A DNA stretch of 64,000 bases from Escherichia coli. Lineage in GTDB: Bacteria; Pseudomonadota; Gammaproteobacteria; Enterobacterales; Enterobacteriaceae. Positions 23,445 to 53,573 of this stretch are shown piece by piece (position 1 is the stretch's first letter; each line of letters starts with the position of its first letter). The notes under the pieces were generated by a model. The model saw only the letters and a program-made list of their open reading frames with translations, ran no database searches and was not told the DNA's origin. The translations under genes and the position numbers were made by a program. The stretch is from the NCBI RefSeq assembly GCF_044647545.1, contig NZ_CP172818.1. One strand, 5' to 3'.

Positions 23445-23463
23445 TAACTTCAGGCAGATTATT

Positions 23464-25151: not shown

Positions 25152-25196
25152 ACATAGCGGCAGGAAAAAAGCGCTCCCGCAGGAGCGCTGAATGGA

Positions 25197-25727
25197 TTAG
25201 CGACCGAACAGGTCACGTTTTTTCGCTTTAAACGGCTGGGAAATCACCACCAGCACCGCGACAATCAGGTAAGCGATAAAAATACCGAGCAACCACTGCG
25301 GCATTTCCAGACCTAAAAAATCCCACTGACGCTCGGCACAATCGCCAGAGGCGACAAACACTTGCGGCACCCATTTATCCAGCGGCAGCCATTCCGGGAA
25401 ACGAACCATAAAATCACAGGTGGCAAACGGCGAAGGATAGAGCTGAAGCATGGTGTGCTCGTAAGTTAACTGCACACCGCGGAACGCACTATACAACCAG
25501 ATAACCATCGCTACATAACGCAGTGGCGTTTTTGGGGCGATCGCGCCAATCAGCGCAGCACCCAGAACGCCGAATAATGCGCAGCGTTCATAAATACAGA
25601 GCACGCAAGGTTTCAGTAACATCACATGCTGGAACCACAGCGCCGTCAGTTCCAGTGCCAGAGCAGTAAACGCCATCAACAGCCACGCGCCCCGGCCTTG
25701 TGAACATTGGTTCAAAAATCGCAACAT
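25197..25727 (-). CDS. dsbB: Disulfide oxidoreductase DsbB
   Basis: 176 aa from ATG 25727 ([17 protein letters not shown]...). Confidence 0.9.
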
Positions 25728-25872
25728 AATCATTTCCCTGCAATATGCATAGAGTGCGCAGTTTAAACCAATTCATTCGCTGCGCCACCAGGAGGCAGCA
25801 AAAATAGGACGCAATTGGACAATTATCGGGCGAAAAGGCAAACCGGGCATTTATATGCCCGGTAAGTTGTTA

Positions 25873-27414
25873 TCAAAGCGTTGCTATCCAGCCCATTTGC
25901 ATAAACCATTCGGTTACAGGGGCAAGCGTAAACTCGACGCAGAGCAGTCCGACGAGTGTCAGTACGAGGGTGTAAGGCAGGGCCATCCACACCATGCGGC
26001 CATAAGAGAGGCGAATCAATGGCGCGAGTGCAGAGGTCAGCAGGAACAGGAACGCAGCCTGACCGTTCGGTGTAGCGACAGAGGGCAGATTGGTACCGGT
26101 ATTAATGGCGACCGCCAGCAGCTCGTATTGCTTCAACGTGATAGCGCCACTTTCCATTGCCGCTTTCGCTTCGTTGATATAAATCGTCCCCACGAAGACA
26201 TTATCCGAAATGGATGACAGCAGGCCGTTAAAAATATAGAACAACGACAGCTGGGCGTGTTCCGATGCCTGTAGGACAAAATGAATGATTGGTGAGAACA
26301 GTTGCTGATCAATAATTACCGCGACGACCGAGAAAAAGACAGTCAACAGTGCGGTGAATGGCAGAGATTCGGTGAAGGCTTTACCGATAGCATGTTCATC
26401 AGTGACACCAGTCAATGATGTCGCCAGAATAATGACCGACAAACCAATCAGGCCAACCTCCGCCAGATGCAACGCCAGCGCGGTGACCAGCCAGACGCCG
26501 ATAATCGCCTGGACAATCAGACGAATTTTATCCTGACGGGTACGCTGGTGGCGACTTTGATCGTCAAACTGTTGCAGCACTTCGCGGACTTTCTCCGGCA
26601 GCGTTTCGCCGTAGCCAAAACAACGCAGCTTCTCCACCAGCAGGCAGGTCAACAGGCCACAAATCAGAACCGGAACGGTCACTGGCGACATGCGCAGGAA
26701 GAAATCGCCAAAATGCCAGCCAGCTGCTTTAGCGATGATCAAGTTCTGTGGTTCGCCCACCATGGTCATCACGCCGCCTAATGCGGTGCCAACACCGGCA
26801 TGCATCATCAGGCTGCGCAAAAAGCCACGGAACTGTTCCAGAACCACTTTGTAATGCTTGTCGATATGACTATCGTCTTGCAGGTCGGTATCTTCAGTAC
26901 GGGAAGAGGCAACACGATGATAAATACCATAAAAACCGACTGCGACGCTGATCACCACCGCCACGACGGTTAAGGCATCGAGGAACGCGGAGAGGAACGC
27001 CGCCGCCATGCAAAAAGAGAGCGACAGCAGCATTTTGGAGCGAATGCTTAGCAGCAAACGGGTAAATATGAACAGCAACAGCTGTTTCATAAAATAGATA
27101 CCCGCCACCATAAACATCAGTAACAGCAAGACTTCAAGATTCGCCGCCACCTCTTCACGAACATGTTCCGCGCTGGTCATGCCGATGAATACCGCTTCGA
27201 TAGCCAACAGACCACCGGGGAGCAGCGGATAGCATTTGAGGGCCATCGCCAGAGTGAAAATAAATTCCGCCACCAGCAGCCAACCGGCAACAAAGGGGCT
27301 GATGATGAAAATTAACGGATTAAGAATTAAGAAAATAATGAGGGCGAGTTTGTACCAGTCGGGGGACTGGCCCAAAAAATTGCGCCATAGCGCACGGCCC
27401 CAGGAGATCTCCAT
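25873..27414 (-). CDS. nhaB: Na+/H+ antiporter NhaB
   Basis: 513 aa from ATG 27414 ([23 protein letters not shown]...). Confidence 0.9.
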
Positions 27415-27636
27415 GATGGTTTCCCTTACCTTAGAAATAATCAATGATGTTTTTATCTTAGAACGCAAAGCTTAACGGTCAGGAGGGGATCGAGGCAAGT
27501 GTTGATGGTCTGGAGAAAAGAGATGTAGAAAATGAAGCCTTGATCCCTTTTTTCTTCTTTTTGTGTGCTATCAGCGTAGATAGCCCTCTGGTATGATGAG
27601 TCCAACTTTGTTTTGCTGTGTTATGGAAATCTCACT

Positions 27637-28356
27637 ATGGTCATTAAGGCGCAAAGCCCGGCGGGTTTCGCGGAAGAGTACATTATTGAAAGTATCTGGA
27701 ATAACCGCTTCCCTCCCGGGACTATTTTGCCCGCAGAACGTGAACTTTCAGAATTAATTGGCGTAACGCGTACTACGTTACGTGAAGTGTTACAGCGTCT
27801 GGCACGAGATGGCTGGTTGACCATTCAACATGGCAAGCCGACGAAGGTGAATAATTTCTGGGAAACTTCCGGTTTAAATATCCTTGAAACACTGGCGCGA
27901 CTGGATCACGAAAGTGTGCCGCAGCTTATTGATAATTTGCTGTCGGTGCGTACCAATATTTCCACTATTTTTATTCGCACCGCGTTTCGTCAGCATCCCG
28001 ATAAAGCGCAGGAAGTGCTGGCTACCGCTAATGAAGTGGCCGATCACGCCGATGCCTTTGCCGAGCTGGATTACAACATATTCCGCGGTCTGGCGTTTGC
28101 TTCCGGCAACCCGATTTACGGTCTGATCCTTAACGGGATGAAAGGGCTGTATACGCGCATTGGTCGTCACTATTTCGCCAATCCGGAAGCGCGCAGTCTG
28201 GCGCTGGGTTTCTACCACAAACTGTCGGCGTTGTGCAGTGAAGGCGCACACGATCAGGTATACGAAACAGTGCGTCGCTATGGGCATGAGAGCGGCGAGA
28301 TTTGGCACCGGATGCAGAAAAATCTGCCGGGTGATTTAGCCATTCAGGGGCGATAA
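27637..28356 (+). CDS. fadR: Fatty-acid metabolism regulator FadR (GntR family)
   Basis: 239 aa from ATG 27637 ([28 protein letters not shown]...). Confidence 0.95.
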
Positions 28357-28373
28357 TCCCTTCCGTTTAAAAA

Positions 28374-28399
28374 GCAAACCCCTCAAACGAGGGGTTTTT
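28374..28399. terminator. Bidirectional terminator between fadR and ycgB
   Basis: aaacccctc-aaac-gaggggttttt, with an A-run upstream on the + strand. Confidence 0.65.
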
Positions 28400-28407
28400 G
28401 GTTGTTT

Positions 28408-29940
28408 TTACAGATTTCCCATTCTTGGCGGGCAACGTTCCAGCAACTCGACGCTGCCGTCTTCGTTTTGCTGTTCCAGCATCACATCAAATCCCCACAG
28501 GCGATGCACATGCTTCAGTACTTCTTTGCGCCCCCGATCCAGCGGTGCGCGATTATGTGGAATGTAACGCAGCGTCAGCGAACGGTCGCCGCGCAAATCC
28601 ACGTTCCAGATCTGAATATTCGGCTCCAGATTACTTAAATTATATTGCGACGATAACCGGTTACGGATCTCCCGATAACCTTCTTCATTATGAATAGCGG
28701 AAATCTCCAGATAATTATGCCGATCGTCGTCCAGCACGGTGAAGAAGCGGAAATCACGCATCACTTTCGGTGATAGGAACTGACTGATAAAGCTCTCATC
28801 TTTGAAATCACGCATCGCAAAATGTAATGTGTCCAGCCAGTCAGAACCGGCGATATCCGGGAACCAGTATTTGTCTTCTTCCGTTGGCGACTGACAAATC
28901 CGTTTAATATCCTGGAACATGGCGAACCCGAGGGCATACGGGTTGATGCCGCTGTACCACGGGCTGTTATAGGGCGGCTGGAAGACCACATTGGTGTGGC
29001 TGTGCAAAAACTCCAGCATAAAACGTTCCGTTACTTTCCCTTCATCATACAGATGGTTAAGGATGGTGTAGTGCCAGAAGGTCGCCCAGCCTTCGTTCAT
29101 CACCTGAGTCTGTTTTTGCGGATAAAAATACTGGCTCACCTTACGCACAATACGCAGGATTTCACGCTGCCATGATTCCAGCAGTGGCGCATTTTTCTCC
29201 ATAAAATAGAGCAAGTTTTCTTGTGGTTCGGACGGATAGCGGCGCGCTTCAGCAACCGTTTTCTCTTCCTCGCGCTTCGGCAGGGTACGCCAGAGCATAT
29301 TGACCTGACTTTGCAGATACTCTTCGCGACTTTTCTGCCGGGCTTTCTCTTCTTGCAGCGAGATTTTTTGCGGGCGTTTGTACCGGTCCACGCCGTAGTT
29401 CATCAGCGCGTGGCACGAGTCCAGAAGCCGTTCTACTTCATCAACGCCATAACGTTCTTCGCACTCGGTAATATATTTACGGGCAAAAATCAGATAATCG
29501 ACAATCGAACTGGCGTCGGTCCAGCTACGGAATAAGTAATTGTTTTTGAAGAAAGAGTTATGCCCATAGCAGGCGTGTGCCATCACCAGCGCTTGCATGG
29601 TAATGGTGTTTTCTTCCATCAGGTAAGCGATACACGGGTTAGAGTTAATGACGATTTCATAGGCCAGTCCTTGCTGACCGTGCTTATACAGCCGTTCAGT
29701 CTCGATAAACTTTTTACCGAATGACCAGTGCGGATAGTTAATTGGCATGCCGACGCTGGAGTAGGCATCCATCATCTGTTCTGAGGTTATCACTTCAATC
29801 TGGTGCGGGTAGGTATCCAGCCGGTAGAGTTTCGCCACCCGGTCTATCTCTGCCAGATAAACATCCAGCAGGTCGAACGTCCAGTCGGGTCCATCGCTCA
29901 AACGTGTGGTGTCCTTATTCATAGAATCGATCGTCGCCAT
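28408..29940 (-). CDS. ycgB: SpoVR-family protein YcgB
   Basis: 510-aa ORF. Confidence 0.9.
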   Translation of the reverse strand: MATIDSMNKDTTRLSDGPDWTFDLLDVYLAEIDRVAKLYRLDTYPHQIEVITSEQMMDAYSSVGMPINYPHWSFGKKFIETERLYKHGQQGLAYEIVINSNPCIAYLMEENTITMQALVMAHACYGHNSFFKNNYLFRSWTDASSIVDYLIFARKYITECEERYGVDEVERLLDSCHALMNYGVDRYKRPQKISLQEEKARQKSREEYLQSQVNMLWRTLPKREEEKTVAEARRYPSEPQENLLYFMEKNAPLLESWQREILRIVRKVSQYFYPQKQTQVMNEGWATFWHYTILNHLYDEGKVTERFMLEFLHSHTNVVFQPPYNSPWYSGINPYALGFAMFQDIKRICQSPTEEDKYWFPDIAGSDWLDTLHFAMRDFKDESFISQFLSPKVMRDFRFFTVLDDDRHNYLEISAIHNEEGYREIRNRLSSQYNLSNLEPNIQIWNVDLRGDRSLTLRYIPHNRAPLDRGRKEVLKHVHRLWGFDVMLEQQNEDGSVELLERCPPRMGNL

Positions 29941-30156
29941 ACGCGCACCTCATTGTTGTCGGCGCTCTCTGTGTGGAGCACCTCATTTCAAGCATAGAAC
30001 ACCTGTTAAAAACCGCGTCGCCGGAGAATTTTTTTCTTTGCGATTTCTTATTATTAGAGTGCCACTAATCCGCTTCTGAACGGAATTTTATGCTGGATAA
30101 AAAGGGCGTTCAGCAGGAGATACTAAAGACGCCATATTGCCGCAGAGTCAGGGAGA

Positions 30157-30172
30157 TGTGAGCCAGCTCACC
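30157..30172. promoter_or_regulatory. CRP binding site in dadAX promoter
   Basis: TGTGAgccagcTCACc matches TGTGA-N6-TCACA. Confidence 0.7.
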
Positions 30173-30224
30173 ATAAAAAAGCCATATGTTGAATAATATT
30201 TTCAACTGAGTTATCAAGATGTAA

Positions 30225-31568
<1,344 letters not shown>

Positions 31569-31577
31569 GGAAACGAG

Positions 31578-32648
31578 ATGACCCGTCCGATACAGGCCAG
31601 CCTCGATCTGCAGGCATTAAAACAGAATCTGTCCATTGTCCGGCAGGCCGCGCCGCACGCGCGCGTTTGGTCGGTGGTAAAAGCGAATGCTTACGGGCAC
31701 GGTATTGAGCGTATCTGGAGCGCGCTAGGGGCCACCGATGGCTTTGCATTACTTAATCTGGAAGAGGCAATAACGTTACGTGAGCGCGGCTGGAAAGGAC
31801 CGATCCTGATGCTGGAGGGATTTTTCCATGCACAGGATCTGGAGATTTATGACCAGTACCGCCTGACCACCTGCGTCCACAGCAACTGGCAGCTCAAAGC
31901 ACTGCAAAATGCGCGGCTAAAAGCGCCGTTGGATATTTATCTTAAAGTGAACAGTGGGATGAATCGGTTGGGCTTCCAGCCCGATCGCGTGCTTACCGTC
32001 TGGCAGCAGTTGCGGGCGATGGCGAATGTTGGCGAAATGACCCTGATGTCGCATTTTGCCGAGGCGGAACATCCTGATGGAATTTCCAGCGCGATGGCGC
32101 GTATTGAGCAGGCGGCGGAAGGGCTGGAGTGTCGGCGTTCGTTGTCCAATTCGGCGGCGACTCTGTGGCACCCGGAAGCGCATTTTGACTGGGTTCGGCC
32201 TGGCATTATTTTGTATGGCGCTTCGCCGTCCGGTCAGTGGCGTGATATCGCCAATACCGGATTACGCCCGGTGATGACGCTAAGCAGTGAGATTATTGGT
32301 GTCCAGACGCTAAAAGCGGGCGAGCGTGTGGGCTACGGCGGTCGCTATACTGCGCGCGATGAGCAGCGAATCGGCATTGTCGCCGCAGGATACGCCGACG
32401 GTTATCCGCGCCATGCGCCTACCGGTACTCCTGTTTTAGTGGACGGCGTGCGCACCATGACGGTGGGGACCGTCTCGATGGATATGCTGGCGGTTGATTT
32501 AACGCCTTGCCCGCAGGCGGGGATTGGTACGCCGGTTGAGCTGTGGGGCAAGGAGATCAAAATTGATGATGTCGCCGCCGCTGCCGGAACGGTGGGCTAT
32601 GAGTTGATGTGCGCGCTGGCGTTACGTGTCCCGGTTGTGACGGTGTAA
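31578..32648 (+). CDS. dadX: Catabolic alanine racemase DadX
   Basis: 356-aa ORF with PLP-lysine motif VVKANAYGHG. Confidence 0.95.
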   Translation: MTRPIQASLDLQALKQNLSIVRQAAPHARVWSVVKANAYGHGIERIWSALGATDGFALLNLEEAITLRERGWKGPILMLEGFFHAQDLEIYDQYRLTTCVHSNWQLKALQNARLKAPLDIYLKVNSGMNRLGFQPDRVLTVWQQLRAMANVGEMTLMSHFAEAEHPDGISSAMARIEQAAEGLECRRSLSNSAATLWHPEAHFDWVRPGIILYGASPSGQWRDIANTGLRPVMTLSSEIIGVQTLKAGERVGYGGRYTARDEQRIGIVAAGYADGYPRHAPTGTPVLVDGVRTMTVGTVSMDMLAVDLTPCPQAGIGTPVELWGKEIKIDDVAAAAGTVGYELMCALALRVPVVTV

Positions 32649-33033
32649 CTTGTTGTAAGCCGGATCGGAGGCAGCGTCTTCTGGTTGCGAAAAAATCATC
32701 CATCCGGCTGGTCAGCAACTGTAGTTGGTGATGTGACAGAGCCATTTCCCATGATAGTGTCCATTACAATGATGGACACTATTTCCCCGGAACCTGAACT
32801 CACCGCACAGGCGTTCTACATAAAACGCTTACGTTTCATTGTTGACTCGAACTCGACTTCAGATAAATCACGCTTCACCCTTGATGGAGCCTGTACATAG
32901 ATTTGTGTAATTGCCTGATTTTGATATGTTCAATTCACCTTCAAATGAAGGTGAATTTATGGCCGACAAACAATTACAGGCTCTGGCTGCGGTCAGTAAA
33001 GCATCGCATCCGGCGATAGATGCTGCATTAAAT

Positions 33034-34818
<1,785 letters not shown>

Positions 34819-34864
34819 TTAGCGGCAGAGACAGCGTTTTACTTAGCCCTGAAGCGTGATTTTT

Positions 34865-36490
<1,626 letters not shown>

Positions 36491-36491
36491 A

Positions 36492-37226
36492 TCAGTCGCG
36501 CACTTTGTCCGCTTTTTTCCGGGCTTCTCGCTCGAGAGAGAAAATAATCCGCTGTAATTGCCGCTCCACCGTCGGGCTGACGTTAAGAAAACGGAAGCTC
36601 AGACGGGGAGTGGTGATGGTTTCATTCTTGCCATCAATCACTTTGCGCTCGCTGATGGAGATTAACTGGGCGTCAAAGTGAAAAACACCCCATTGCCCCA
36701 TGTTGACTTCAATCTGAGCGAAGCGCATGCCTTCGTGCAATCCGGCAGGCTTTGCTGTTTCCAGTAATGCGCCCATGCCGCCTAACGATAAATCATACAG
36801 GCGGAAACGTAACGTACTGTTATCCGCCAGTTTGGTCTGGCAAAAATAAGGCGGATGGAGTGGGGCGGAGATGCGGAAATATCGGCGTCGTTGTACAAAC
36901 CACAAGGTGGGAGGCGGTACGGTAATAAATGCCGGAAGCTGCAAGTATTCACTCTGCTGTAGTTGTTCAACAGTAAACTCGACTTTCGCACCCTGAGTTT
37001 CGGCGGTAATGGTAATGTGCTGCGCCTTTAGCACGGCGATGTTGTCTTCGGCCTGGCTGCCGAAATCCAGCACCAGTTTATCCGGAGTTATTGCCAGTAT
37101 TTTGCTGATCAGCTGCCCGCCATTCCAGCTAATACGCAAAGGAATTGCGGCTTTGTGCAAATCGCGTAACACGCCCAGGACGGCTAACGGATTTTGTTTC
37201 AGGAACTGCTCATGGTAATGACTCAC
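36492..37226 (-). CDS. ycgR: Flagellar brake protein YcgR (PilZ domain)
   Basis: 244-aa ORF. Confidence 0.9.
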   Translation of the reverse strand: MSHYHEQFLKQNPLAVLGVLRDLHKAAIPLRISWNGGQLISKILAITPDKLVLDFGSQAEDNIAVLKAQHITITAETQGAKVEFTVEQLQQSEYLQLPAFITVPPPTLWFVQRRRYFRISAPLHPPYFCQTKLADNSTLRFRLYDLSLGGMGALLETAKPAGLHEGMRFAQIEVNMGQWGVFHFDAQLISISERKVIDGKNETITTPRLSFRFLNVSPTVERQLQRIIFSLEREARKKADKVRD

Positions 37227-37426
37227 GCGGAAAAACTCCTGACTGACAAACTGTCTTAGGTTTATCGGTCACAGTTAACAAAACTTAATACAAATGCGTG
37301 AATATTTTTTACATGTCGTTCTTAAATCAGCCGACATACGCCCAGCATCGATCCCGCCCTTGCCTATACTTAGAGCGTTGACGTAAGCATTTCTTGCGTC
37401 CGATTCATCGAAACGAGGGCCTGAAC

Positions 37427-37681
37427 ATGGGAATTATTGCCTGGATTATTTTTGGCCTGATAGCCGGCATAATCGCCAAGCTAATCATGCCGGGACGTGA
37501 TGGTGGTGGATTTTTCCTGACCTGTATTCTCGGGATAGTCGGTGCGGTGGTCGGCGGCTGGCTGGCGACCATGTTTGGCATTGGCGGCACCATCAGCGGT
37601 TTTAATTTGCACAGCTTCCTGGTGGCGGTGGTGGGCGCTATCCTGGTGCTGGGCGTATTCCGCCTCCTGCGAAGAGAATAA
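37427..37681 (+). CDS. ymgE: Transglycosylase-associated small membrane protein YmgE
   Basis: 84 aa from ATG 37427 (MGIIAWIIFGLIAGIIAKLIMPG...). Confidence 0.85.
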   Translation: MGIIAWIIFGLIAGIIAKLIMPGRDGGGFFLTCILGIVGAVVGGWLATMFGIGGTISGFNLHSFLVAVVGAILVLGVFRLLRRE

Positions 37682-38082
37682 GATTTTCATAAGGCGGATA
37701 GTGATACAGATGCCGCTATCCGCTTTCACATCAGAACGTATACTCGATACCTGCTTTACGGGGTGAAAAAAATCAATATAGCACTTCGATATCCGATAAA
37801 GTCGGTTCCCGGTAACAACAACAGAATCCTTTTTTAATTATTGTTTCGTTGTTTTTGGTGTGATTCAGAAAATAAATATTTTAGACAGTAGCCAGTCAGG
37901 CGTTAAAAATGGGGCGGATAGTGAGGCGGTTTTGGCTGCGCTTATTGAACATTTTCAGAATTGATCAGAATCCTTCTGTAGATTCGTAGCCAAAATACCC
38001 GTTCGGCAATGCTTCAGTTACGCGAAGAGGAATGGGTCTGAATTCTTTTTTTGGTTGTCAACTTTGGTAGTGTCTGGATTAT

Positions 38083-38286
38083 GTGATTATTAATTTAACT
38101 CCAGAAAGCAAAAAACGTCGACGAAGTGAACACCAGACATTCAGGAAGCAATTGATGCTTTATATAGCCAACGTCTGGGGCGTAAAGTCGCTGGGTGATG
38201 AGGTGAGACACTTACCCGTAAATGACGCTAATTCGCAAAATCCACGCACTCCAAACATTTGCGCAATACTTCCCGCCAGGACTTGA
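38083..38286 (+). CDS. Hypothetical 67-aa ORF in the interval where K-12 carries ycgY (possible remnant)
   Basis: Only + strand ORF of at least 60 aa between ymgE and treA; GTG start; no recognisable domain. Confidence 0.2.
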   Translation: MIINLTPESKKRRRSEHQTFRKQLMLYIANVWGVKSLGDEVRHLPVNDANSQNPRTPNICAILPART

Positions 38287-38378
38287 AAAACCGTCGTGAG
38301 AAAAAACCATAGCTATGGTGTTATCCGCCGACAACGCCATCCGGAGAAGCCGAATGACGTTGTCGGAGTAAGCGCTGG

Positions 38379-40076
38379 TTAAGGCGTAGGTTCCGCCTCT
38401 TTTTGTTTTAGCGGTTGTGTTGTTGATTCACTGAGTGGACGCGTCGCCGGAACATTGTCACACGGTTGCTCTTTCGGGCAGATCAAATCCAGCATTTTCA
38501 GCGTCACGCCATTGGTCCAGCCAAAGCCATCCTGTAATGGATATTCGCCACCGCCGCCCCCCGTTCCGGTGGCGCTGACATCATATTTTTCCACCAGCTT
38601 TTTCTCCCGGTCATAGGTGTGCTGAACATTGGTCAGGAAGTGCCAGCTAATGTCCATCGCCACCTCTTTTTGCCCGTAGTTTTGTAATCCTTCTGTCGCG
38701 ACCCACTGCAACGGTGCCCAGCCGTTTGGCGCATCCCATTGTTGTCCACTTTTCACCGACGTGGTGTTCAGGCCGCCGGGTTGCAGCAGATGTGTTTTCG
38801 TCGCCGTCGCCATTTTGCTGGCGCGATCTTTCGCTGCCGCATTGACGTACAGCGGGAACAGGGCGGCCGCGGTTAACTGATTGCGCACTTTATGACTTTT
38901 CAGGTCGTAATCGGCATACCAGCCTTGTTGATCGTTCCACAGGTATTTTTCGATCCCTTTTTGACGGGCATTCGCCAGCGTTTCGTACTGGTTTGCCATC
39001 GCGTTATCTCCGGCAGCTTTGCTGGCGCGGGCGAGGATTTTTTCCATTTTAAACATCAGGCTGTTCAGATCGACCGGTACGATGCTGGTGGTGCGTAAGG
39101 TATTTAACTGCTGCGGATTGTCCATCCAGCGTGAGCTGAAATCCCAGCCAGACGCAGCGGCAGAGCGCAGGTCGCGGTAAATTTCAGTGGCAGGTCGATT
39201 CGGATTGCTTTTGGCGGTGGCAATATCTTCCACCCATGACTCTGGTCGTGGCGTATCGCGATCGTCCCAGTAGCGGTTGAGAAGGGTACCATCCTGAAGT
39301 TTGACAATGCGTTTTTCCTGTTGTCCGGCTTGCAGGTTTTCAACACCGTCCATCCAGTAAGCATATTCTTTTTGCATTTGCGGCAGGTATTGTTTCAACG
39401 CGGCGTCGCCTTCATGCTGCGTCAGTAACTCTACCATCAGGGCAAAGAAGGGCGGCTGCGAGCGGCTTAAATAGTAACTGCGGTTGCCGTTGGGAATATG
39501 CCCGTAAGTGTCTATTTCATGAGCAAAATTGGCCACCATATCCGCGACTTTATCCCAGTGACCGCTTTCGGCAAGTCCTAACATGGTGAAGTAACTGTCC
39601 CAGTAATATACCTCGCGAAAACGTCCGCCCGGCACGACATAAGGTTCCGGCAGCGGTAACAGAGAATCCCATTTTTCGGTGTTTTCGGTAGAACGCGTTA
39701 ATACCGGCCAAAGTCCGTCAATATGTTCGCGCAGTGACTGCCCCTCTGGCGGAACATATTTCTCGCCCTCTTTTGGCAGGGTGAAATTGACGTTAACGAA
39801 ATGGCGCAGATCAAATCCGCTCTGGTTTTGCTGCATCCGATAATCAGCAAGGATCATCAGCGGATCGCTGTTCGGCACGGCATCGGCAAAGGTTTTTTGG
39901 TCCGGAAAAAGTTTGGCGTTTTGCACATCATTAAACAGCGGCCCTAATAAAATATCAGGCGGCTGTGGCGTTACCGATGTTTCTTCTGCCTGCACCGATA
40001 GCGCAGCAAAACACAAAAAGATGCAGGCTGGAATTAACGCCATTTTTTGCGGGCGAGAAGGGGTGGGGGATTTCAT
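38379..40076 (-). CDS. treA: Periplasmic trehalase TreA
   Basis: 565 aa from ATG 40076, signal peptide. Confidence 0.95.
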
Positions 40077-40395
40077 CAATCATTCTCCTTTGGCGAAACC
40101 GAATAAAACGGTATTCAAGTATCAGAAAACCTTAGTTCAGGATCGCACTAGCTGCATGATCGAAATCACATTCTGCGAACTGACAGACATTTTAGAAAAG
40201 GGAATTAAAGGGATAAATAACGGCGAAATAGAGTGATAAAATAACATCTGTTTATTAGTCAGCCAGCGACGTTGGGTTCGCGATTAGCGAAGAAAAATCA
40301 TCATAATTTGGTGAAAAATATAACAGGTAGTTAAAAAACATCAGTGCAGAGTAAATTGCCGGATGACATCAGAATGATGCCATCCGAACGGTGGT

Positions 40396-41814
40396 TTAAC
40401 CCTGACGGTTGAAACGTTGCGTTTTAACGTCCAGCGTTAGCGTTTCTTCTGGTTGTATCGCATACAGTTTCTCACCCTGCTGGCAAATCCAGCCAATTCC
40501 CAGTTCACGGGCGATTAGGGCACTGTGGGATAGCGGACTTCCGGCGCTAAGGCAGATACCTTTTACAACCGCTGGATCCAGTTGCAGTACTGTGGAGGGA
40601 TAAATGTTCTCCGCCAGTAGAATAGTTGGCGAGTTAAACTGCGGGAGTTCTTCTTTCGTTTGGGTCAGGTGGACCAGGGTGCGATGCAGAAGATCGTCCA
40701 CATCGATATAGCGAGCCTGTAGATATTCATCATCCAGCTGTTGGTATTGCTGGCTAAGTTCTTTAAGAACGTGCTGCCAGGCATATTCCGCCGTGCAATG
40801 TTCATGCTGAAGGAGTTCGCTTGCCGCCGCCTGCAGTTCCGGATCATCTAACAGTGTATGGTGACCAGAAAAGATTGCGGCAATATCGTCAAGCCCGCTG
40901 GTTTCTGCTTTCGCTGTTAACGTCATCAGATCTAATAACGTGAAGTCAATGGCCTGGCGTAATCGTTCTTGTTCTTCTTCCACGGTCAGGATTGATTTTG
41001 CCTGTACCGTACATAAAACAGGTTGATAATAAAAGGCTTTACCCGAAACAGGCGGAACGGGACGCAGAGTAGGTGGAGCAACTTCCTCCGTTTCACCAAA
41101 GTTATCTTCAGCCAGCTGACGGAAAGCGATCAGTGCCTCTTCAGCTTCTGGTCCTTTCGCAATCAGGCGCAGCGTATCGTTATAGCGAACTTGTAGTAAC
41201 GCAATCTGATTAATACTCTCCGGTGTAACGCATTTGCCGTTTTTCTCCAGCAACATATCGGCATTAAATGTCGATAAGGTATAAACCAGTCGGGAGGCCG
41301 GACGTACATGCAGGCCGTTACGGTTTTTTATGACCACCGACAGAGAACGGGCTTCTTCATCGTACGGAGGACATGTGTCAGAGATTTCAGTGTCGGAGGA
41401 CGGTAAACCCAGTTGTTCACGTTTGGCTTCCAGCGCATGCATGGCGTCAAAGATGACTTTGTCGATATCCGCCCCCGAGGCCGCGCTGACCGTTGCTGCC
41501 AGTGTACCTTCGACCAACGGCGCAGCACACAAACGTACTTTTGCGGCGATCTCGGGAGCCAGCAATTCCAGCGCAGTTTCAGCACTCAATAATGCGCTTC
41601 CCATATCCATCATGACCAGCACATGGTCGGCATCGGCAACAGATTCGATGGCCTCCATCACTTTGACGGCATCGGTACCAATGGGATTTTGTGGATCGTC
41701 AATTCCCGCGGCAATGGCGATTTTACAATTATCACTCATTAACATCTGACGGGCTAATTCACCGACACCTTCTCCCAGTCGGCTGCTATGTGAAACTATG
41801 ACCAGGTTTACCAT
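40396..41814 (-). CDS. dhaM: Dihydroxyacetone kinase phosphotransfer subunit DhaM (EIIA-HPr-EI-like)
   Basis: 472 aa from ATG 41814. Confidence 0.9.
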   Translation of the reverse strand: MVNLVIVSHSSRLGEGVGELARQMLMSDNCKIAIAAGIDDPQNPIGTDAVKVMEAIESVADADHVLVMMDMGSALLSAETALELLAPEIAAKVRLCAAPLVEGTLAATVSAASGADIDKVIFDAMHALEAKREQLGLPSSDTEISDTCPPYDEEARSLSVVIKNRNGLHVRPASRLVYTLSTFNADMLLEKNGKCVTPESINQIALLQVRYNDTLRLIAKGPEAEEALIAFRQLAEDNFGETEEVAPPTLRPVPPVSGKAFYYQPVLCTVQAKSILTVEEEQERLRQAIDFTLLDLMTLTAKAETSGLDDIAAIFSGHHTLLDDPELQAAASELLQHEHCTAEYAWQHVLKELSQQYQQLDDEYLQARYIDVDDLLHRTLVHLTQTKEELPQFNSPTILLAENIYPSTVLQLDPAVVKGICLSAGSPLSHSALIARELGIGWICQQGEKLYAIQPEETLTLDVKTQRFNRQG

Positions 41815-41824
41815 CACCAATTCC

Positions 41825-42457
41825 TTACTCTTTTGCGGCTAACGCCAACATTTGCATCATAAACATCACCGAGGTCGCGCCGGGATCCTGGTGACCAATA
41901 CTGCGTTCACCGAGATAACTGGCGCGGCCTTTGCGGGCTTGCATCGTAATCGTACTTTGTGCAGCGGATTCGGCGATGCTACTGGCAGCGTCGAGCGCCG
42001 CCGGAACAGGGAGATTTTGCTCGCAGGACTGACGTAACGATTCCACCACCGGCACCCACACATCACACATGGTTTTATCGCCAGGTTCGGCTTTCCCGCG
42101 ACTGATTACGCCGTCCGCGCCATCGCGGAACATCTGATAAAGCTCTTCCAGCGTCAGGCTTTGCCGTGCCTGGGTTGTCTGTGCGGCGCGGATAAAGAAG
42201 GTACCGAACAGCGGACCACTGGCACCTCCGACGCTGGAAAGTAGCGTCATGCCGGTATTCTTGAGAATGAAACCGATATCTTTATCTGCGATAGCAGGGA
42301 GTTTTTCCACCACTTTGCTAAAGCCTCGATTCATATTTAGCCCGTGGTCAGCGTCGCCAATCTCGCGATCCAGTCCAGTAAGATACTCGCTCTCGGTGCT
42401 GAAAATATCGCCACAACGAGTGAGCCAGTTAACAATTTGAGTTCTGCTCAGTGACAT
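41825..42457 (-). CDS. dhaL: Dihydroxyacetone kinase ADP-binding subunit DhaL
   Basis: 210 aa from ATG 42457 (MSLSRTQIVNWLTRCGDIF...). Confidence 0.9.
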   Translation of the reverse strand: MSLSRTQIVNWLTRCGDIFSTESEYLTGLDREIGDADHGLNMNRGFSKVVEKLPAIADKDIGFILKNTGMTLLSSVGGASGPLFGTFFIRAAQTTQARQSLTLEELYQMFRDGADGVISRGKAEPGDKTMCDVWVPVVESLRQSCEQNLPVPAALDAASSIAESAAQSTITMQARKGRASYLGERSIGHQDPGATSVMFMMQMLALAAKE

Positions 42458-42467
42458 TGCTTTCTCC

Positions 42468-43538
42468 TTATTTACCCCAGTTAAGGGCCGGGGTGTGGAC
42501 AGGGGCGTCCCAGAGTGCCAGCGTTTCGTCATCAACTTTCAGTAAGCTGATTGAGAAACCGGTCATATCCAGTGAGGTGCAGTACGCGCCAATTAAATTA
42601 CGTTCGATAGTCAATCCCGCTTGCTGGCAACGTGTGGTCAGGCGGCTATAGACGCCGTACAGCTCAGAAAGCGGAGTTGCGCCAAGATTGTTAACCAGCG
42701 CAATCACCCGATCGCCAGACTGGAGCGGTTGTTTGGTTTGTGGTTCTTCCTGCCAGCTGCCTTGTTGATAATCCCAGAAACGCAAAGTGCGATGGTATGA
42801 GCCATTTTCCAGCAGGGTGTCGAACATTTCATCGACGGTTTGATCAAGGGAAGAGAAGGGGCGGCGGTCAATACCTGGCTCACCATGAATGCCGACGCCA
42901 AACTCCATCTCATTATCCGCCAGGGTAAAAGAAGGTTTGCCCGCGGCAGGAACGGTACAGGCACCGAGAGCGATACCTATTGAATGGCCTTGATTATTCA
43001 ACTTACGCCCCAGTTCCGCACAGGCGTCCAGTGAGTCGCCACGCTCCGCCGCTGCACCTACGAGTTTTTCAATTAATACGGTGTTGGCAACGCCGCGCCG
43101 CCCGGCGGTATAAAGACTGTCTTTTACTGCAACGTCGTCATCAATGACCACAGTGGTCACTTTTACGCCGCTATCGTGCAGTAACTCGGTTGCTGTTTCG
43201 AAGTTAAGAATATCGCCGGTGTAATTTTTGATAATCAACAGTACACCTTCGCCGCCATCAATTTGCATGGCGCATTCAAAGATTTTATCGGGCGTCGGTG
43301 AGGTGAAAATTTCGCCCGGACAGGCCCCAGAAAGCATCCCCTGACCGATATAACCACAATGCATCGGCTCGTGTCCGCTGCCGCCACCCGACAGCAGGGC
43401 GACTTTTCCTGCCACGGGGGCATCAGCTCGGGTGACATACACCGGATCCTGGTGCAGTATCAGCGATGGATGCGCTTTCGCTAGTCCTGCCAGTTGTTCG
43501 TCCAGTACGTCTTGCACATCATTGATCAATTTTTTCAT
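42468..43538 (-). CDS. dhaK: Dihydroxyacetone kinase subunit DhaK
   Basis: 356 aa from ATG 43538 (MKKLINDVQDVLDEQLAGL...). Confidence 0.9.
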   Translation of the reverse strand: MKKLINDVQDVLDEQLAGLAKAHPSLILHQDPVYVTRADAPVAGKVALLSGGGSGHEPMHCGYIGQGMLSGACPGEIFTSPTPDKIFECAMQIDGGEGVLLIIKNYTGDILNFETATELLHDSGVKVTTVVIDDDVAVKDSLYTAGRRGVANTVLIEKLVGAAAERGDSLDACAELGRKLNNQGHSIGIALGACTVPAAGKPSFTLADNEMEFGVGIHGEPGIDRRPFSSLDQTVDEMFDTLLENGSYHRTLRFWDYQQGSWQEEPQTKQPLQSGDRVIALVNNLGATPLSELYGVYSRLTTRCQQAGLTIERNLIGAYCTSLDMTGFSISLLKVDDETLALWDAPVHTPALNWGK

Positions 43539-43653
43539 TATTTTGCTCCAGCAATTACGGTAGGGCATGGATGATGTTCAACGACACGGCGACCACTGAC
43601 TGCCGATGAATCCATTGTGCATCAGGCAAGGGAAAAGAAAATTAGCCCAAATT

Positions 43654-43701
43654 ATGTTTCATAGTGAAACATATTCTTTAATGAATGTTCCATATTGAAA
43701 C
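43654..43701. promoter_or_regulatory. Tandem palindromic motifs in dhaK-dhaR divergent region (candidate DhaR sites)
   Basis: atGTTTCatagtGAAACat and atGTTCCatattGAAACtt about 10 bp apart. Confidence 0.4.
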
Positions 43702-43765
43702 TTTTACGTGTATTAATACTTAAAATTGCGAGCCGGAACACCTTTTGTCATAAGGGATGCGGGAT

Positions 43766-45685
43766 ATGAGTGGCGCTTTTAACAACGATGGTCGGGACAT
43801 ATCTCCCTTAATTGCAACCTCCTGGGAGAGATGCAATAAGCTGATGAAACGGGAGACATGGAACGTACCACACCAGGCCCAGGGCGTGACATTTGCTTCT
43901 ATTTATCGGCGTAAGAAAGCGATGCTGACGCTCGGGCAGGCTGCGCTGGAAGATGCCTGGGAATATATGGCACCGCGAGCGTGTGCGTTGCTTATCCTCG
44001 ATGAAACCGCCTGCATTCTCAGCCGTAATGGCGATCCGCAAACCTTGCAGCAACTAAGTACACTGGGATTCAATGACGGCACGTATTGCGCCGAGGGAAT
44101 TATTGGTACTTGTGCGCTATCGTTAGCGGCTATCTCTGGTCAGGCCGTGAAAACGATGGCCGATCAACATTTCAAACAGGCACTCTGGAACTGGGCCTTT
44201 TGCGCAACGCCGTTGTTTGACAGCAAGGGCCGATTGACGGGAACAATAGCGCTGGCGTGTCCGGTTGAACAAACTACCGCAGCTGATTTGCCGTTGACGT
44301 TGGCAATCGCACGCGAGGTCGGAAATTTACTGCTGACGGACAGTTTGCTCGCTGAAACTAACCGCCATTTAAATCAACTTAATGCCCTGTTAGAAAGTAT
44401 GGATGATGGCGTGATTAGCTGGGACGAGCAGGGTAATTTGCAATTTATCAACGCCCAGGCGGCGCGAGTCTTGCGCCTTGACGCGACGGCAAGTCAGGGA
44501 CGAGCAATCACTGAACTCTTAACGTTACCCGCCGTATTGCAACAAGCAATAAAACAGGCACATCCGCTCAAACACGTAGAAGCAACCTTTGAAAGTCAGC
44601 ACCAGTTTATTGATGCGGTGATAACCCTTAAACCGATAATAGAAACGCAGGGAACCAGCTTTATTTTGTTGCTCCATCCTGTGGAACAGATGCGGCAGTT
44701 AATGACCAGTCAATTAGGAAGAGTCAACCATACTTTCGCTCATATGCCACAGGACGATCCGCAAACCCGCCGCTTGATTCATTTTGGTCGCCAGGCGGCG
44801 CGCAGTAGCTTTCCTGTCCTGCTTTGTGGAGAAGAGGGCGTGGGCAAGGCACTGCTAAGTCAGGCAATTCATAATGAAAGTGAGCGTGCAGCGGGGCCTT
44901 ATATCGCCGTCAATTGTGAGTTATATGGTGATGCGGCGCTGGCGGAAGAATTTATTGGCGGCGATCGCACGGACAATGAAAATGGTCGTCTGAGTCGACT
45001 GGAACTGGCGCACGGCGGCACGCTGTTTCTTGAAAAGATTGAATATCTGGCGGTGGAGTTACAGTCTGCTTTGCTTCAGGTTATCAAGCAGGGTGTTATC
45101 ACGCGACTGGATGCGCGGCGTTTAATACCCATTGATGTCAAAGTGATTGCCACAACGACCGCGGACCTGGCAATGCTGGTGGAACAAAATCGCTTTAGTC
45201 GCCAGCTGTATTACGCGCTGCATGCATTTGAAATTACCATCCCGCCTCTGCGTATGCGGCGTGGCAGCATTCCGGCGCTGGTGAATAACAAATTACGCAG
45301 CCTTGAAAAACGCATCTCTACGCGGCTGAAAATTGATGACGATGCCCTCGCTCGCCTGGTTTCTTGTGCATGGCCAGGCAACGATTTTGAACTTTACAGC
45401 GTCATCGAGAATCTTGCACTGAGTAGTGATAACGGGCGCATTCGCGTCAGTGATTTACCTGAACATCTGTTTACCGAGCAGGCGACAGATGATGTCAGCG
45501 CCACTCGCCTTTCCACCAGTCTGTCATTTGCGGAAGTTGAAAAAGAGGCAATTATTAACGCAGCCCAGGTCACAGGCGGTCGCATTCAGGAAATGTCGGC
45601 TTTACTTGGAATCGGCCGCACTACGCTGTGGCGGAAAATGAAGCAACATGGCATTGATGCAGGGCAGTTTAAGCGCCGGGTATGA
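43766..45685 (+). CDS. dhaR: Transcriptional activator DhaR (GAF/PAS + AAA+ + Fis-type HTH)
   Basis: 639 aa from ATG 43766 (MSGAFNNDGR...). Confidence 0.9.
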   Translation: MSGAFNNDGRDISPLIATSWERCNKLMKRETWNVPHQAQGVTFASIYRRKKAMLTLGQAALEDAWEYMAPRACALLILDETACILSRNGDPQTLQQLSTLGFNDGTYCAEGIIGTCALSLAAISGQAVKTMADQHFKQALWNWAFCATPLFDSKGRLTGTIALACPVEQTTAADLPLTLAIAREVGNLLLTDSLLAETNRHLNQLNALLESMDDGVISWDEQGNLQFINAQAARVLRLDATASQGRAITELLTLPAVLQQAIKQAHPLKHVEATFESQHQFIDAVITLKPIIETQGTSFILLLHPVEQMRQLMTSQLGRVNHTFAHMPQDDPQTRRLIHFGRQAARSSFPVLLCGEEGVGKALLSQAIHNESERAAGPYIAVNCELYGDAALAEEFIGGDRTDNENGRLSRLELAHGGTLFLEKIEYLAVELQSALLQVIKQGVITRLDARRLIPIDVKVIATTTADLAMLVEQNRFSRQLYYALHAFEITIPPLRMRRGSIPALVNNKLRSLEKRISTRLKIDDDALARLVSCAWPGNDFELYSVIENLALSSDNGRIRVSDLPEHLFTEQATDDVSATRLSTSLSFAEVEKEAIINAAQVTGGRIQEMSALLGIGRTTLWRKMKQHGIDAGQFKRRV

Positions 45686-45784
45686 AAGACAGAAACGATT
45701 TCTGATACATCAGAGTGATCTGTATTTCATTCCGGCGCACGCTAACAATTTTCAGCATCGTTTAAGGGCTTGTCTATCCCGCAC

Positions 45785-48639
45785 TTAAAAGCTGAAGCGA
45801 TATCCTCCGTTGACTTGCTTCTGATCAAAGAGGTTACCCTGCGTGTAATCCGCTTCGAGATAGAATGTGTGCTGTTTGTTATACTGTGCACTGACTCCCA
45901 CGCCGTTATTCCAGCCATTACCTTTGAAACTGTACTTCTCCCGGGAGTTGTTCAACAGATATTCGGTATCCCCTGAAAACTCGCGGATAGCGCCAGTCTT
46001 CACATAGACATTCAGCTGGCTGTTGCCTGCGGTGATGTCATACCCCAGTATCATGCTGGCACGCCCCAGCAGCGATTCGTAGTGATTCAGATGTATATTG
46101 AGGCCATTACTCGCCTTCATAGTCATCTCATTCTGGTGGCTGTATGTAAGCTGGGTTTGCGGCTGAATATAGAACCCATAACCAGTAGGGGACAGGTTGA
46201 ACCTCTGCCCGGCTTCCAGGGAGATGCTCATTCCATTCGCAGTGCCGTTGGCGTTAACGCCGTTGTTCTGACTGTCCAGTACGTGGGGAAATGATTTTGG
46301 CGCGATGCTTTTATAACGAGATCGCTGTAAAACTGTTTTGTGCCATGTAACTGGCGTACATTCCCATGTAGTCTACGTGTGTTACGCTCCCGCTATAGTC
46401 CGGCGATGCATGTGTTGAGCCAATATACAGACCGACATACAACGGCATTACATCAGAGAGACGTTTATCCCCACCAAACTGGATACCGCTGTAACCCATG
46501 TCAAAGCCGCTCAGTTTGCCACTGGCAAAGGAGTCTGAGGCTTCCCCCATAACTGCGCAACCAGATATTACCGTCTTTACTCTGATTTCGCAGGTCACCC
46601 ATCCGTTGCATCAGCGTACGGTTTTCAACATAGTTCAATAAGTAACCGACATTGAGATAATTGCCGCCAGCATCTGCGGTCGTGGTGGGTTTAGGCGTGG
46701 GAGCGGGTTCAGGCGTAGGATCGGGGTTGACTATGGAGGCTGAGCGGGAAATGGTGTGGTTCAGGATTAGGAGTCGGTTCCGGAACTGTCCCGGAAGCGT
46801 AAAGCTCCCAGTTAGTGCCATTTTTACGCACATCAGACATATCCCCCAACTCAACCTGAGAAGACGCGCTGAACGAGGCCGCGCCGTCAGTGGTTATTAC
46901 CACGGTCAGAACTTCATTTCCCGTCGTGGCCTCGCTGCCCTGGTTCAGCATAGCTATATGTGATTACCAGCACTACTCCCGCTGATATTCAATAAATCCC
47001 CTTTATTATTAACGCCATTACCCTCGCCAACAACATCAGCACGCATAATAAAGGTACTGTTACCGCTCAGGTTCTCTACGTTTAATGTGGCAAATGTGCC
47101 GGCAGTTGACCCGTGGCTGGCAAAATCGACAGTTGAATGGCTCAGCGCCAGCGTGTCGAGATTAGAATTACTTGTTACGTTCCAGACGCTGTTATTCATT
47201 GCAACGTCCAGTTTTCCGCCATTGACATTATCGCTGAGGGAGGAACCTGTCCAAACCGACCCAGGGTGCATATCCAGATTGATTAGCCCACCTTTGGAAA
47301 GAACGCTACCGTTGATAAGCATACGACCCGAGGCGTTGATGCGGCTGGCGGCATAACCATCGTCATGTTGCGTTGCGATGGCCATCTGGTCGGGTGTACT
47401 CATATCAATGACCAGATCGCTCGTGAGGTCGATCTGGCTGTTGGTCATGGCATAAATTCCCCTGGCTCCTGCCGCGCCGGTGATAGCCAAACTGTCTCCG
47501 GTTATTCTACCGCCGCTGAGAGCCCACAAACCCAGCGCCAGACTGCCATTACGATCAACTGTAATATCGGTATTTTGCATGTTGACAACAGCCGTTGCCG
47601 TCTGGGCCGAGGCACCATAAGAACCGCCGGAAAAGATGCTGTTTCGTTGCGCTGCCGTGCCAGTAAAATTGATTATCGCGTCTGAACCACTGGTGACGAG
47701 GCCACCGCCCTGCGCGGAAGAAATATGGCTATCTGCACCGATAGTGGTTGTACCACCACGAACTTCGACGCCATTGGCCGCGGCTCCAGTTACATCAACA
47801 GTGAGTGCATTCGCGCTAACCTGGCCAAAGCTCCAGAGGCCGTGAGCATTATCGCCATTGGTTTTAATGGTACTGTTTGTTCCGAGATCGACAACAGAGT
47901 TTTTCTGTACGTTTATCCCCATGGCGCTGTAGCCCTGAACATCGATTGTCAGGTCTGTAGCCGTAAAACGCGCAGCACCATTGGCGTTATTGCCGTTGAG
48001 ACCACCGATATAAACACCTGTACTTCCATCGGTCGTGATTTTACTTCCGCTTCCAAGATCGACACTGGTGCCATAGTCATTGATGGTTAGGCCTATACCG
48101 TTCGAGTTTTCAATGGTGAATTGAGTGGCTGTTAGTGTTGAGCTATGCCCAATAATGATGCCGTCATCGTTACTCTTAATGGTGCTGCCTGTGCCTAAGT
48201 CAGCATGGGTATAGTCACCAATTAAGTTAATGCCGATGGCAGAGGTTTGACCAACAACATCTACTGTGAGTCGGTTAGCTGTCAGGGAGCTGTTTTTGCC
48301 CTGAATAATGATTCCTTTTGCATATCCAGAGGCGTCGTTGACATTGACGGTGACATCATTACCCAGGTTGATATTGCCAGGCGTGTTTCCTGCTGGGGTC
48401 ATTACACCATAGAGGTTTCCTGATGGATCGGCGGTATCTCCTGTAATTCTGTCACCATCATTAATAGTAATATTGGTGCCATATTGACTTCCTGTATCAG
48501 CAGCTATCAGCAGGGGGGAAAAGATAATTGCATTCAAACCAATAGCGCCAAATTTTATCAGTTGAATTGAGGGCGAACGGATTTTTAATTCAGCGAGACG
48601 ATCTGCTTTGGTATTCCCATTGTGTTGTTTGATGCCCAT
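45785..48639 (-). pseudogene. ycgV: Autotransporter adhesin YcgV with multiple frameshifts in the C-terminal third
   Basis: Five ORF fragments (46954..48639 passenger; 46709..46951; 46501..46854; 46311..46598; 45785..46231 beta-barrel ending YRFSF) jointly span an autotransporter of roughly 950 codons. Confidence 0.75.
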
Positions 48640-48980
48640 ACCACTCCTATATAGTACCCAGACTATGGGTCTATGGATTTTGTCATTTTGTTTAAATCAA
48701 TGAATAATATCCTCTTATCATCATGATATTTGTATGGTGCAATCATGATGAGCTTCTCAGAGAATAATTCTCTATTACCGGGCAAAATCAGGAACACAGG
48801 AATTAATATATATTTAACATCCCCCTTACAAAGGTGAGTTTATATCGAGTTATTCCCTAAGTTGTCGTTACTTATTCCAATTCGTTACTATAAATATGGC
48901 AAAAATATTACAACAAACAGCGGTTAAAAAATTTGGTGAAGATTTTTTGTAATAATCCTAATTAGTTATGGGAATTTCGC

Positions 48981-49163
48981 TTGATGTATCTGCATAACAA
49001 AAACAATATGCGCCATTTTTGCATTACTAATAAGAAAAAGCAAAAAACATCGATATTCATTTTTGGTCAATGGGTTTTCTGGCCTATCGTTGTTATTGTG
49101 CTACTGGTTATCATTTTCATCTTGCCAGCATATTGGAGCGTGATCAATTTTGATCAGCTGTGA
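48981..49163 (+). CDS. Hypothetical small membrane protein (60 aa, one predicted TM helix)
   Basis: ORF MMYLHNKNNMRHFCITNKKKQKTSIFIFGQWVFWPIVVIVLLVIIFILPAYWSVINFDQL in AT-rich ycgV-ychF spacer; weak SD. Confidence 0.2.
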   Translation: MMYLHNKNNMRHFCITNKKKQKTSIFIFGQWVFWPIVVIVLLVIIFILPAYWSVINFDQL

Positions 49164-49409
49164 AGGGGGCTGATGTGTAGTGATACAAAAACTTACGTTA
49201 TATCACTGCTAATGAGATATCCGGCATCTGAACACTTATGTCTTTAATTATTCTCGTGGTTCACTATAGGCAATAAGCACAAAAGTGTAGGATGTTACAA
49301 GAATGAATTAGGACTCTATGAAATGAAAAATCCACGCAATTGCGTGGATTTAATGGTTTTTTTGATTCTCATGAAGTTCAATGAAACCTCATGAGACAAC
49401 AAATTTTAT

Positions 49410-50501
49410 TTAGACGTTGAACAGGAAGTTCATTACATCGCCATCTTTAACGATGTAATCTTTGCCTTCTGCACGCATTTTGCCTGCTTCTTTCGCGCCT
49501 TGTTCACCTTTGTAAGTGATGAAATCTTCAAACGAGATGGTTTGTGCACGGATAAAGCCTTTTTCAAAATCAGTATGGATTTTGCCAGCGGCCTGCGGCG
49601 CGGTTGCACCAACCGGAATGGTCCATGCACGTACTTCTTTCACCCCAGCGGTGAAGTAAGTTTGCAGGTTCAGCAGCTTATAACCGGCACGGATCACACG
49701 GTTCAGGCCCGGCTCTTCCAGCCCAAGCTCCTGCATAAACTCGTCACGTTCTTCGTCGTCCAGTTCGGCAATGTCTGCTTCAACAGCAGCACAAACCGGA
49801 ACCACAACAGAACCTTCTTTCGCCGCGATTTCACGCACCTGGTCAAGATACGGGTTGTTTTCAAAACCGTCTTCGTTGACGTTGGCGATGTACATTGTTG
49901 GTTTCAGCGTCAGGAAGCTCAGGTAACGAATAGCCGCTTTCTCTTCAGCGCTTAAATCCAGCGCGCGCAGCATACCTGCGTTTTCCAGCTGGGGCAGGCA
50001 TTTTTCCAGGACCGCCAGCTCAGCTTTCGCGTCTTTATCGCCACCTTTGGCTTTCTTCTGTACGCGATGAATCGCACGTTCACAGGTGTCGAGATCCGCC
50101 AGCGCCAGTTCGGTGTTGATAACTTCAATATCATCCGCCGGGTTAACTTTGCCGGAAACGTGAATGATGTTGTCATTTTCAAAGCAGCGAACAACGTGAC
50201 CGATCGCTTCGGTTTCACGGATGTTGGTCAGGAACTGGTTACCCAGACCTTCGCCTTTCGATGCGCCTTTTACCAGACCGGCGATATCGACAAATTCCAT
50301 GGTCGTGGGAAGCGTACGCTGCGGTTTTACGATTTCAGCCAGTTGATCCAGGCGAGGGTCAGGCATTGGTACGACGCCTGTGTTCGGCTCAATGGTACAG
50401 AATGGAAAGTTGGCCGCTTCAATACCGGCTTTGGTCAGCGCGTTGAACAGGGTAGATTTCCCGACGTTGGGCAAACCGACGATACCGCATTTGAATCCCA
50501 T
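49410..50501 (-). CDS. ychF: Ribosome-binding ATPase YchF
   Basis: 363-aa ORF with G1 motif GLPNVGKST. Confidence 0.95.
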
Positions 50502-50617
50502 GATTTAAATCACCTTAATATCTTAATAATCAACCTGTTATTGCTAACAGATTGCAGAAATGGAAATAACTTTGCCTATTATACACGGCACTCGGCAAAA
50601 ATGCCGCAGACAACGAC

Positions 50618-51758: not shown

Positions 51759-51812
51759 CAAATACTGCAGTTTACTGACCAGTCAGTTTGCTCTGACTGG
51801 TCAATCTCGTAC

Positions 51813-53492: not shown

Positions 53493-53573
53493 AATAATGT
53501 TTCATCCGTGAGCGCATCATCTGTCAACTAAATGGCAGGTGAAGGAGGCATAGGTCATACAAATGGATATTAC

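Follow-up and report, generated by a model that had tools for sequence, protein, structure and literature searches.

In Escherichia coli K-12 the ycgY gene is located on the + strand between ymgE and treA, where it occupies 441 bp (146 codons and a stop codon) and starts with GTG. The 146-residue product found at the annotated comparator locus was identical to YCGY_ECOLI, an uncharacterized orphan; neither a Pfam nor an NCBIfam match was obtained for K-12 YcgY itself, and a search of 100,044 species representatives returned no YcgY relatives. In one screen the overexpression of ycgY was reported to raise the nalidixic acid MIC more than 12-fold, the protein again being called uncharacterized (PMC12924614). 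The E. coli locus was found to be dimorphic, with ycgY present in 3,177 of 5,426 complete genomes and missing from the other 2,249 (about 40%), those of the latter that were examined having a six-gene cluster. In many complete E. coli genomes, among the matches listed, ycgY was split by IS1A or IS1B, which suggests that such splits are a recurrent natural route of ycgY loss, or that the gene is an IS1 target. Judged from its distribution, ycgY is a dispensable orphan gene restricted to E. coli, and as such a gene, missing from some two fifths of the complete genomes, its loss is unremarkable.

The DNA analysed here, referred to as the window, is a stretch of 64,000 nucleotides from an E. coli contig (NZ_CP172818.1). 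The gene order of the window was that of K-12, with a single colinear alignment to MG1655 covering 2308-62235, and the window was also colinear with other ycgY-bearing genomes. The interval of interest (37682-38378, 697 bp) was bounded on one side by ymgE on the + strand (37427-37681), an ORF of 84 codons and a stop codon that is annotated as ymgE in the 100% identical FDAARGOS_497, and on the other by treA on the - strand (38379-40076). Both genes were present as ST648-lineage alleles, where ST648 lineage is a convenience label for the genomes that are 100% identical to the window flanks; we take this lineage to belong to phylogroup F. The initial annotation of the window had found no intact ycgY between ymgE and treA while expecting a K-12 gene of roughly 146 codons in this interval. 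The absence was confirmed, and the expected gene is present on the + strand at 441 bp in MG1655 and other annotated genomes, which refutes the alternative offered at the time, that the length or the strand ascribed to it was wrong.

A ycgY remnant homologous to the entire 441-bp K-12 gene was located at 37860-38299 on the + strand. Its position, strand and GTG start were the same as those of K-12 ycgY, the two sequences aligned from end to end, and the upstream region and codons 1-31 were identical. In contrast to the intact K-12 gene, the reading frame of the window copy was lost through approximately 19 indels, with the first stop, a TGA at 37962-37964, closing the frame after codon 34. A tblastn search with K-12 YcgY, which the initial annotation had proposed as the way to locate the disruption, did so and gave homologous pieces along the whole gene that were distributed over all three + frames with several stops between them. 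The piece SQNTRSAMLQLREEEW was read in one frame, SEFFFW in another and CLDYVIINLTPESKK in the third, and the frame switched again through AIDALYSQR, ETLTR and QTFAQYFPPGLEKPS. The interval aligned end to end with ycgY-bearing genomes at approximately 92.8% identity, so that the missing ORF is a result based on homology and not on chance.

The alignment of 37755-38377 (623 bp) with MG1655 contained 22 mismatches and 19 gap openings. The longest + strand frame of the interval was, as had been reported, 67 codons in length (38083-38286); it starts with GTG, its first 11 residues (IINLTPESKK) track YcgY and the rest is out-of-frame read-through. Neither a Pfam nor an NCBIfam match was found for the product of this frame. 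An intact ycgY that was shorter or used a non-ATG start was considered and rejected, as the GTG start was present at the same place as in K-12 and the frame that followed it ended after codon 34. The location between ymgE and treA, the shared strand with ymgE and the nucleotide homology over the whole gene are those of a ycgY orthologue; an unbroken reading frame running for some 146 codons after the GTG was absent. The window copy is a dead K-12-type ycgY. With about 19 small indels and 22 substitutions past codon 31 no YcgY product is possible, and the most that could be translated from it is an N-terminal peptide of 34 residues.

Two hairpins, both intact, were predicted at the ends of the interval. 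The first was directly 3' of ymgE on the + strand (37691-37726) and had a 13-bp stem followed by UUUC, with a folding energy of -18.5 kcal/mol and a z-score of -3.8; it is likely to be the ymgE terminator. This hairpin sits within the 73 bp that follow ymgE (37682-37754), which were common to all interval types and 100% identical to the ST648-lineage genome. The second hairpin was directly 3' of the treA stop codon on the - strand (38328-38366; -39.5 kcal/mol, z-score -5.9) and is likely to serve as the terminator of treA and of the convergent ycgY. Its sequence was of the K-12 type with a single base altered at 38337. It was found in ycgY-type intervals and was missing from island-type intervals and the ST648-lineage genome, meaning that the signals for treA termination differ between the two locus types. 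A non-coding RNA within the interval was also considered and rejected, as no Rfam match was obtained at E<=1 and a promoter and terminator scan of the interval revealed nothing above chance.

When the flanks of the interval were compared with other genomes, 33000-37754 and 38378-42000 were 100% identical to FDAARGOS_497, IMT16316, Ecol_881, MS6198, ECONIH1 and strain ST648, among others. The spacing between ymgE and treA was 6,805 bp in all eight genomes listed among the matches to both flanks, each at 100% identity, compared with 697 bp in the window. Every ST648-lineage genome checked lacked ycgY and contained instead a cluster of six - strand genes for a TonB-dependent receptor, ModD, a class I SAM methyltransferase, an ABC ATPase, a FecCD permease and an iron-binding protein. 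The ymgE and treA flanks and the first 73 bp after ymgE of the island-type interval were 100% those of the window, whereas the 6,731 bp (6.7 kb) of iron-uptake genes that follow were replaced in the window by 623 bp of ycgY-type sequence, and no trace of the island was found in the window. On the left, identity to the ST648 lineage stopped at 37754 and K-12-type sequence started at 37755, as given by the BLAST end points. The last SNP specific to the ST648 lineage was at 37748, 6 bp from this breakpoint, and the SNPs marking the left flank were in alignment columns 21 and 67. On the right the breakpoint was at 38377/38378, with 100% identity to the ST648 lineage restarting at 38378.

The K-12-type segment (37755-38377, + strand) was not uniform. 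A stretch at 37764-37954, which takes in the region upstream of ycgY together with the GTG start (37860) and the 31 initial codons, had zero differences from K-12. It was followed at 37955-38300 by a scrambled zone in which small indels and substitutions were clustered into about 13 patches, set between K-12-identical runs of 29-49 bp, which gave 41 events within approximately 350 bp. The insertions and deletions almost cancelled, with a net change of +1 bp across the 623 bp, and several of the patches generated short local repeats. Five natural ycgY alleles, picked across the identity range, were aligned with the window. Pairwise these alleles differed by at most 15 SNPs and zero indels, while the window had a state of its own in 74 alignment columns and had no variant in common with any natural allele other than that of K-12. 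At the 16 naturally variable columns the window had the K-12-type base in 14 and a base unseen in the natural alleles in the remaining 2. The naturally disrupted alleles are inactivated at the same locus as the window copy, but by a single IS1A or IS1B in an otherwise K-12-like gene, whereas the window copy contains no IS element and dozens of tiny unique changes.

The closest match among the 5,426 complete E. coli genomes reached 92.8% identity across the interval and 86.7% across the scrambled core. This RefSeq collection is a sample of E. coli, and the comparison could therefore have missed a real but rare lineage. Neither a scrambled or intermediate ycgY allele nor a second ycgY-like locus was found in any of these genomes. 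A window-specific 33-mer (GTGAACACCAGACATTCAGGAAGCAATTGATGC) had no match in the GTDB species representatives or the JGI metagenome contigs, and the 67-aa, 34-aa and 42-aa ORFs and the truncated 561-aa YcgV had no record among approximately 15 billion proteins and 153 billion gene positions. A divergent natural allele, or introgression from another Escherichia, was rejected because no closer allele was present in the 5,426 genomes in either near or distant search mode, no YcgY relative was found in the species representatives and the 33-mer was unmatched.

A further candidate, that the patches had been copied from the iron-uptake island or from a ycgY remnant of the ST648 lineage, was rejected on the basis that no homology, and no ycgY-like remnant, was found in 123 kb of ST648-lineage context and that base agreement was at chance level. 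The patch substitutions agreed with the island in 1 of 14 and 1 of 10 cases, no better than chance, the patch bases fitted the island edges no better than they fitted random island segments, and k-mer sharing was not enriched. The patch sequences were not copied from the island or from nearby ST648-lineage sequence, and none of the genomes had another ycgY-like locus that could have supplied them.

The juxtaposition of two sequence types extended over the whole window. Approximately 54 kb was 99.96-100% identical to FDAARGOS_497 (4115-12372, 13959-32886, 32973-37754, 38378-45678, 49293-62235 and 62444-64000), and these stretches differed from K-12 by 23 mismatches per kb. All islands specific to the ST648 lineage, three in number, were missing from the window, and each breakpoint could be placed to a single base. 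These were a 1.9-kb island with a leucine-rich-repeat gene (window 32887-32972), the 6.7-kb iron-uptake cluster at the ycgY locus and a 40-kb island after dhaR (after window 45678). The stretches for which the ST648 lineage has nothing, or is too divergent to align, were K-12 sequence in the window. Zero differences from K-12 were observed at 2729-4114 (the remainder of pin, mcrA and the e14 icd fragment), at 12373-13958 (the ycgH passenger region), at 45679-46164 and 46960-49292 (both in ycgV) and at the 5' stretch of the ycgY segment described above. The K-12-only sequence came to approximately 6.0 kb with 0 differences observed, compared with about 139 expected at core-level divergence. The scrambled patches were confined to K-12-only stretches, namely those of ycgY, ycgV (46165-46959) and ldr (62236-62443).

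The e14 end of the window departed from K-12 mainly through substitutions. Positions 1243-2326, within the invertible-segment frame of e14, matched a P2-like prophage (L016 3501-4584) at 99.6% identity in its genes for the tail fibre and for tail-fibre assembly; in FDAARGOS_497 this prophage is 305 kb from the icd locus. The identity was 99.7% in other ST648-lineage genomes and mostly 80-90% in the remaining genomes, with 88-92% to K-12 e14. These values indicate that 1243-2326 is paralogous prophage sequence of the ST648 lineage inside the K-12 e14 frame, a match that is not decisive when taken alone since phage tail-fibre modules are naturally mosaic.

Reference-guided assemblies keep the order of the template, lose insertions of the sample, keep template sequence that is uncovered or divergent, and project reads from paralogues onto the template. 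Each of these four properties was matched by the window. It was colinear with K-12 with the template-only segments included; the insertions of the sample lineage (1.9, 6.7 and 40 kb) were missing with base-exact breakpoints; K-12 sequence was kept where that of the sample was absent or too divergent (12373-13958, ycgV and mcrA); and paralogous sample sequence was present in the template's copy (1243-2326). The most economical, and a probable, reading is that a K-12 template has been overwritten in the window with the sequence of an ST648-lineage strain; the ycgY 'pseudogene' is then most likely an assembly artefact. The disruption, the mosaic and the uniqueness of the changes are demonstrated here, and we infer both the projection and the cause of the patches from the pattern of the sequence.

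An ST648-lineage strain would have been projected onto K-12 through the mapping of its reads, through polishing or through some comparable reference-guided procedure for a consensus, and the bases of the strain would have been written wherever strain and K-12 align. Insertions of the strain itself, which are not representable on the template, would have been lost, and where the strain has no counterpart, as at ycgY, the K-12 template would have been retained and locally corrupted. The ycgY remnant would then not be part of the strain at all, being retained template corrupted in patches. Prophage reads would have been mapped to the nearest K-12 homologue and would have placed P2-like sequence in the e14 frame, exactly as observed. 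Between ymgE and treA the real strain would most likely have the 6.7-kb iron-uptake cluster (TonB receptor, ModD and ABC genes) and no ycgY. The scrambled patches of the window are unlike the textbook outcome of simple consensus calling. Template without coverage would be expected to come through a plain mapping consensus unaltered, and the patches count against the template reading for that reason. They would fit polishing noise on an unsupported backbone, and would fit simulated noise equally well.

The other alternative in the initial annotation was that this strain has a pseudogenized ycgY, comparable to its ycgV and pin. The disruption stands at the level of the sequence, but the evidence does not fit natural decay. 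It is true that ycgY, ycgV and pin share their fate, which points to the construction of the sequence and not to the biology of the strain. For a genuine natural pseudogene, a strain with an ST648-like core would have acquired or kept K-12-type ycgY, ycgV and e14, after which ycgY decayed by small indels. We regard this as unlikely, despite several features that are consistent with it. The sequence is clearly derived from ycgY and disabled, and the combination of homology to an intact gene elsewhere with disabling mutations is that of a unitary pseudogene. The gene is dispensable in nature, being missing from the 2,249 genomes noted above, IS1 insertions in it are common among the matches listed, and its upstream region is intact, as are the hairpins on either side.

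Natural decay is doubted because the relatives with 100% identical flanks have the iron cluster and no ycgY, because the segment is K-12-identical outside dense patches unique to the window, and because the same pattern is repeated at ycgV, ycgH, e14 and ldr. There would have been no time for decay, the K-12-only sequence having zero substitutions over about 6 kb and ycgY 41 events over 350 bp, an amount of change that is out of line with the divergence of the surrounding DNA of the same origin. A crossover no more than 6 bp from the heterology boundary would have been needed here and likewise at five other loci. The imports would have to be K-12-identical without background divergence, and dozens of unique indels would have to be limited to parts of them. 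The changes were common to no other genome, related or unrelated, with neither the same nor an intermediate allele in related genomes, and the five natural alleles sampled were without any indel.

A sequence that had been computationally edited, simulated or generated by a model, for example by noise put into the accessory segments of a composite, is improbable. Such an origin would agree with patches set within otherwise perfect K-12 sequence, with the near balance of insertions and deletions, with the short local repeats and with the lack of a match in any public collection searched. The mosaic, however, has exactly the form that would result from read mapping to K-12, paralogous prophage included, and would not be expected from an arbitrary simulation. 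It is very improbable that the scrambling reflects a real localized mutational process that acted on a newly acquired K-12-type ycgY, ycgV and ldr unit and spared the 54-kb core. The survival of a shorter functional gene, either the 67-codon frame or the 34-codon N-terminal frame, is hardly credible, since although both frames are open and the 34-codon one has a K-12-identical upstream region, the 67-codon frame departs from YcgY after its 11 initial residues, belongs to no matched family, has no identical product among the approximately 15 billion proteins and occurs in no other genome of the 5,426.

With a K-12 template as the preferred reading, the window seems to combine two genomes, with ST648-lineage sequence in a K-12 frame, and findings in the K-12-only segments should consequently not be treated as strain biology until the provenance of the sequence has been checked. 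This applies to ycgY, ycgV and pin as 'pseudogenes', to the e14 end and to the unusual ldr unit, all of which are suspect, and the real gene content at the ycgY locus is probably the iron-uptake cluster, which is not visible in the window. The loss of ycgY in the window is either trivial biology or, more probably, not real, and the case is of value mainly as a caution for the reading of the entire window.

Several further observations were made in the course of these comparisons. The genome NZ_CP042934.2 (4.69 Mb), labelled as E. coli 042, differed from K-12 at 7 of 2,620 positions at the locus and was dropped as a cross-phylogroup comparator, this number of differences making it uninformative on other phylogroups; its size and likeness to K-12 are presumably out of keeping with strain 042. 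An autotransporter ORF of 353 aa was on record on a K-12-like metagenome contig, and is therefore not diagnostic. The ycgH passenger region at 12373-13958 (1,586 bp) was 100% identical to K-12 and other genomes with K-12-type ycgH, with flanks that were 100% ST648-lineage, so that the sequence type switched abruptly on both sides of the block; within this region FDAARGOS_497 and K-12 differ in 30-80% of columns. At 32887-32972 (86 bp) the window had the K-12 arrangement with 5 mismatches to K-12, at the site between dadX and cvrA where the ST648 lineage has its 1.9-kb insertion with the leucine-rich-repeat protein gene.

In ycgV (45679-49292) a K-12-only segment was found in place of the 40-kb ST648-lineage island, and the scrambled zone at 46165-46959 contained 23 mismatches and 10 gap openings relative to K-12, so that ycgV is truncated to a frame of 561 codons; among natural sequences the closest to this zone was 95.4% identical. 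The ldr region at 62236-62443 was a 208-bp remnant at a site where K-12 has an extra 535-bp ldr unit and the ST648-lineage genome has none, and it fitted neither of the two well (73.7% with 8 gap openings at best). The 5' part of pin/pinE (2324-2728) had 47 mismatches and 5 gap openings relative to K-12 pinE, next to the zero differences at 2729-4114, and this divergent part may be derived from another invertase of the sample strain.
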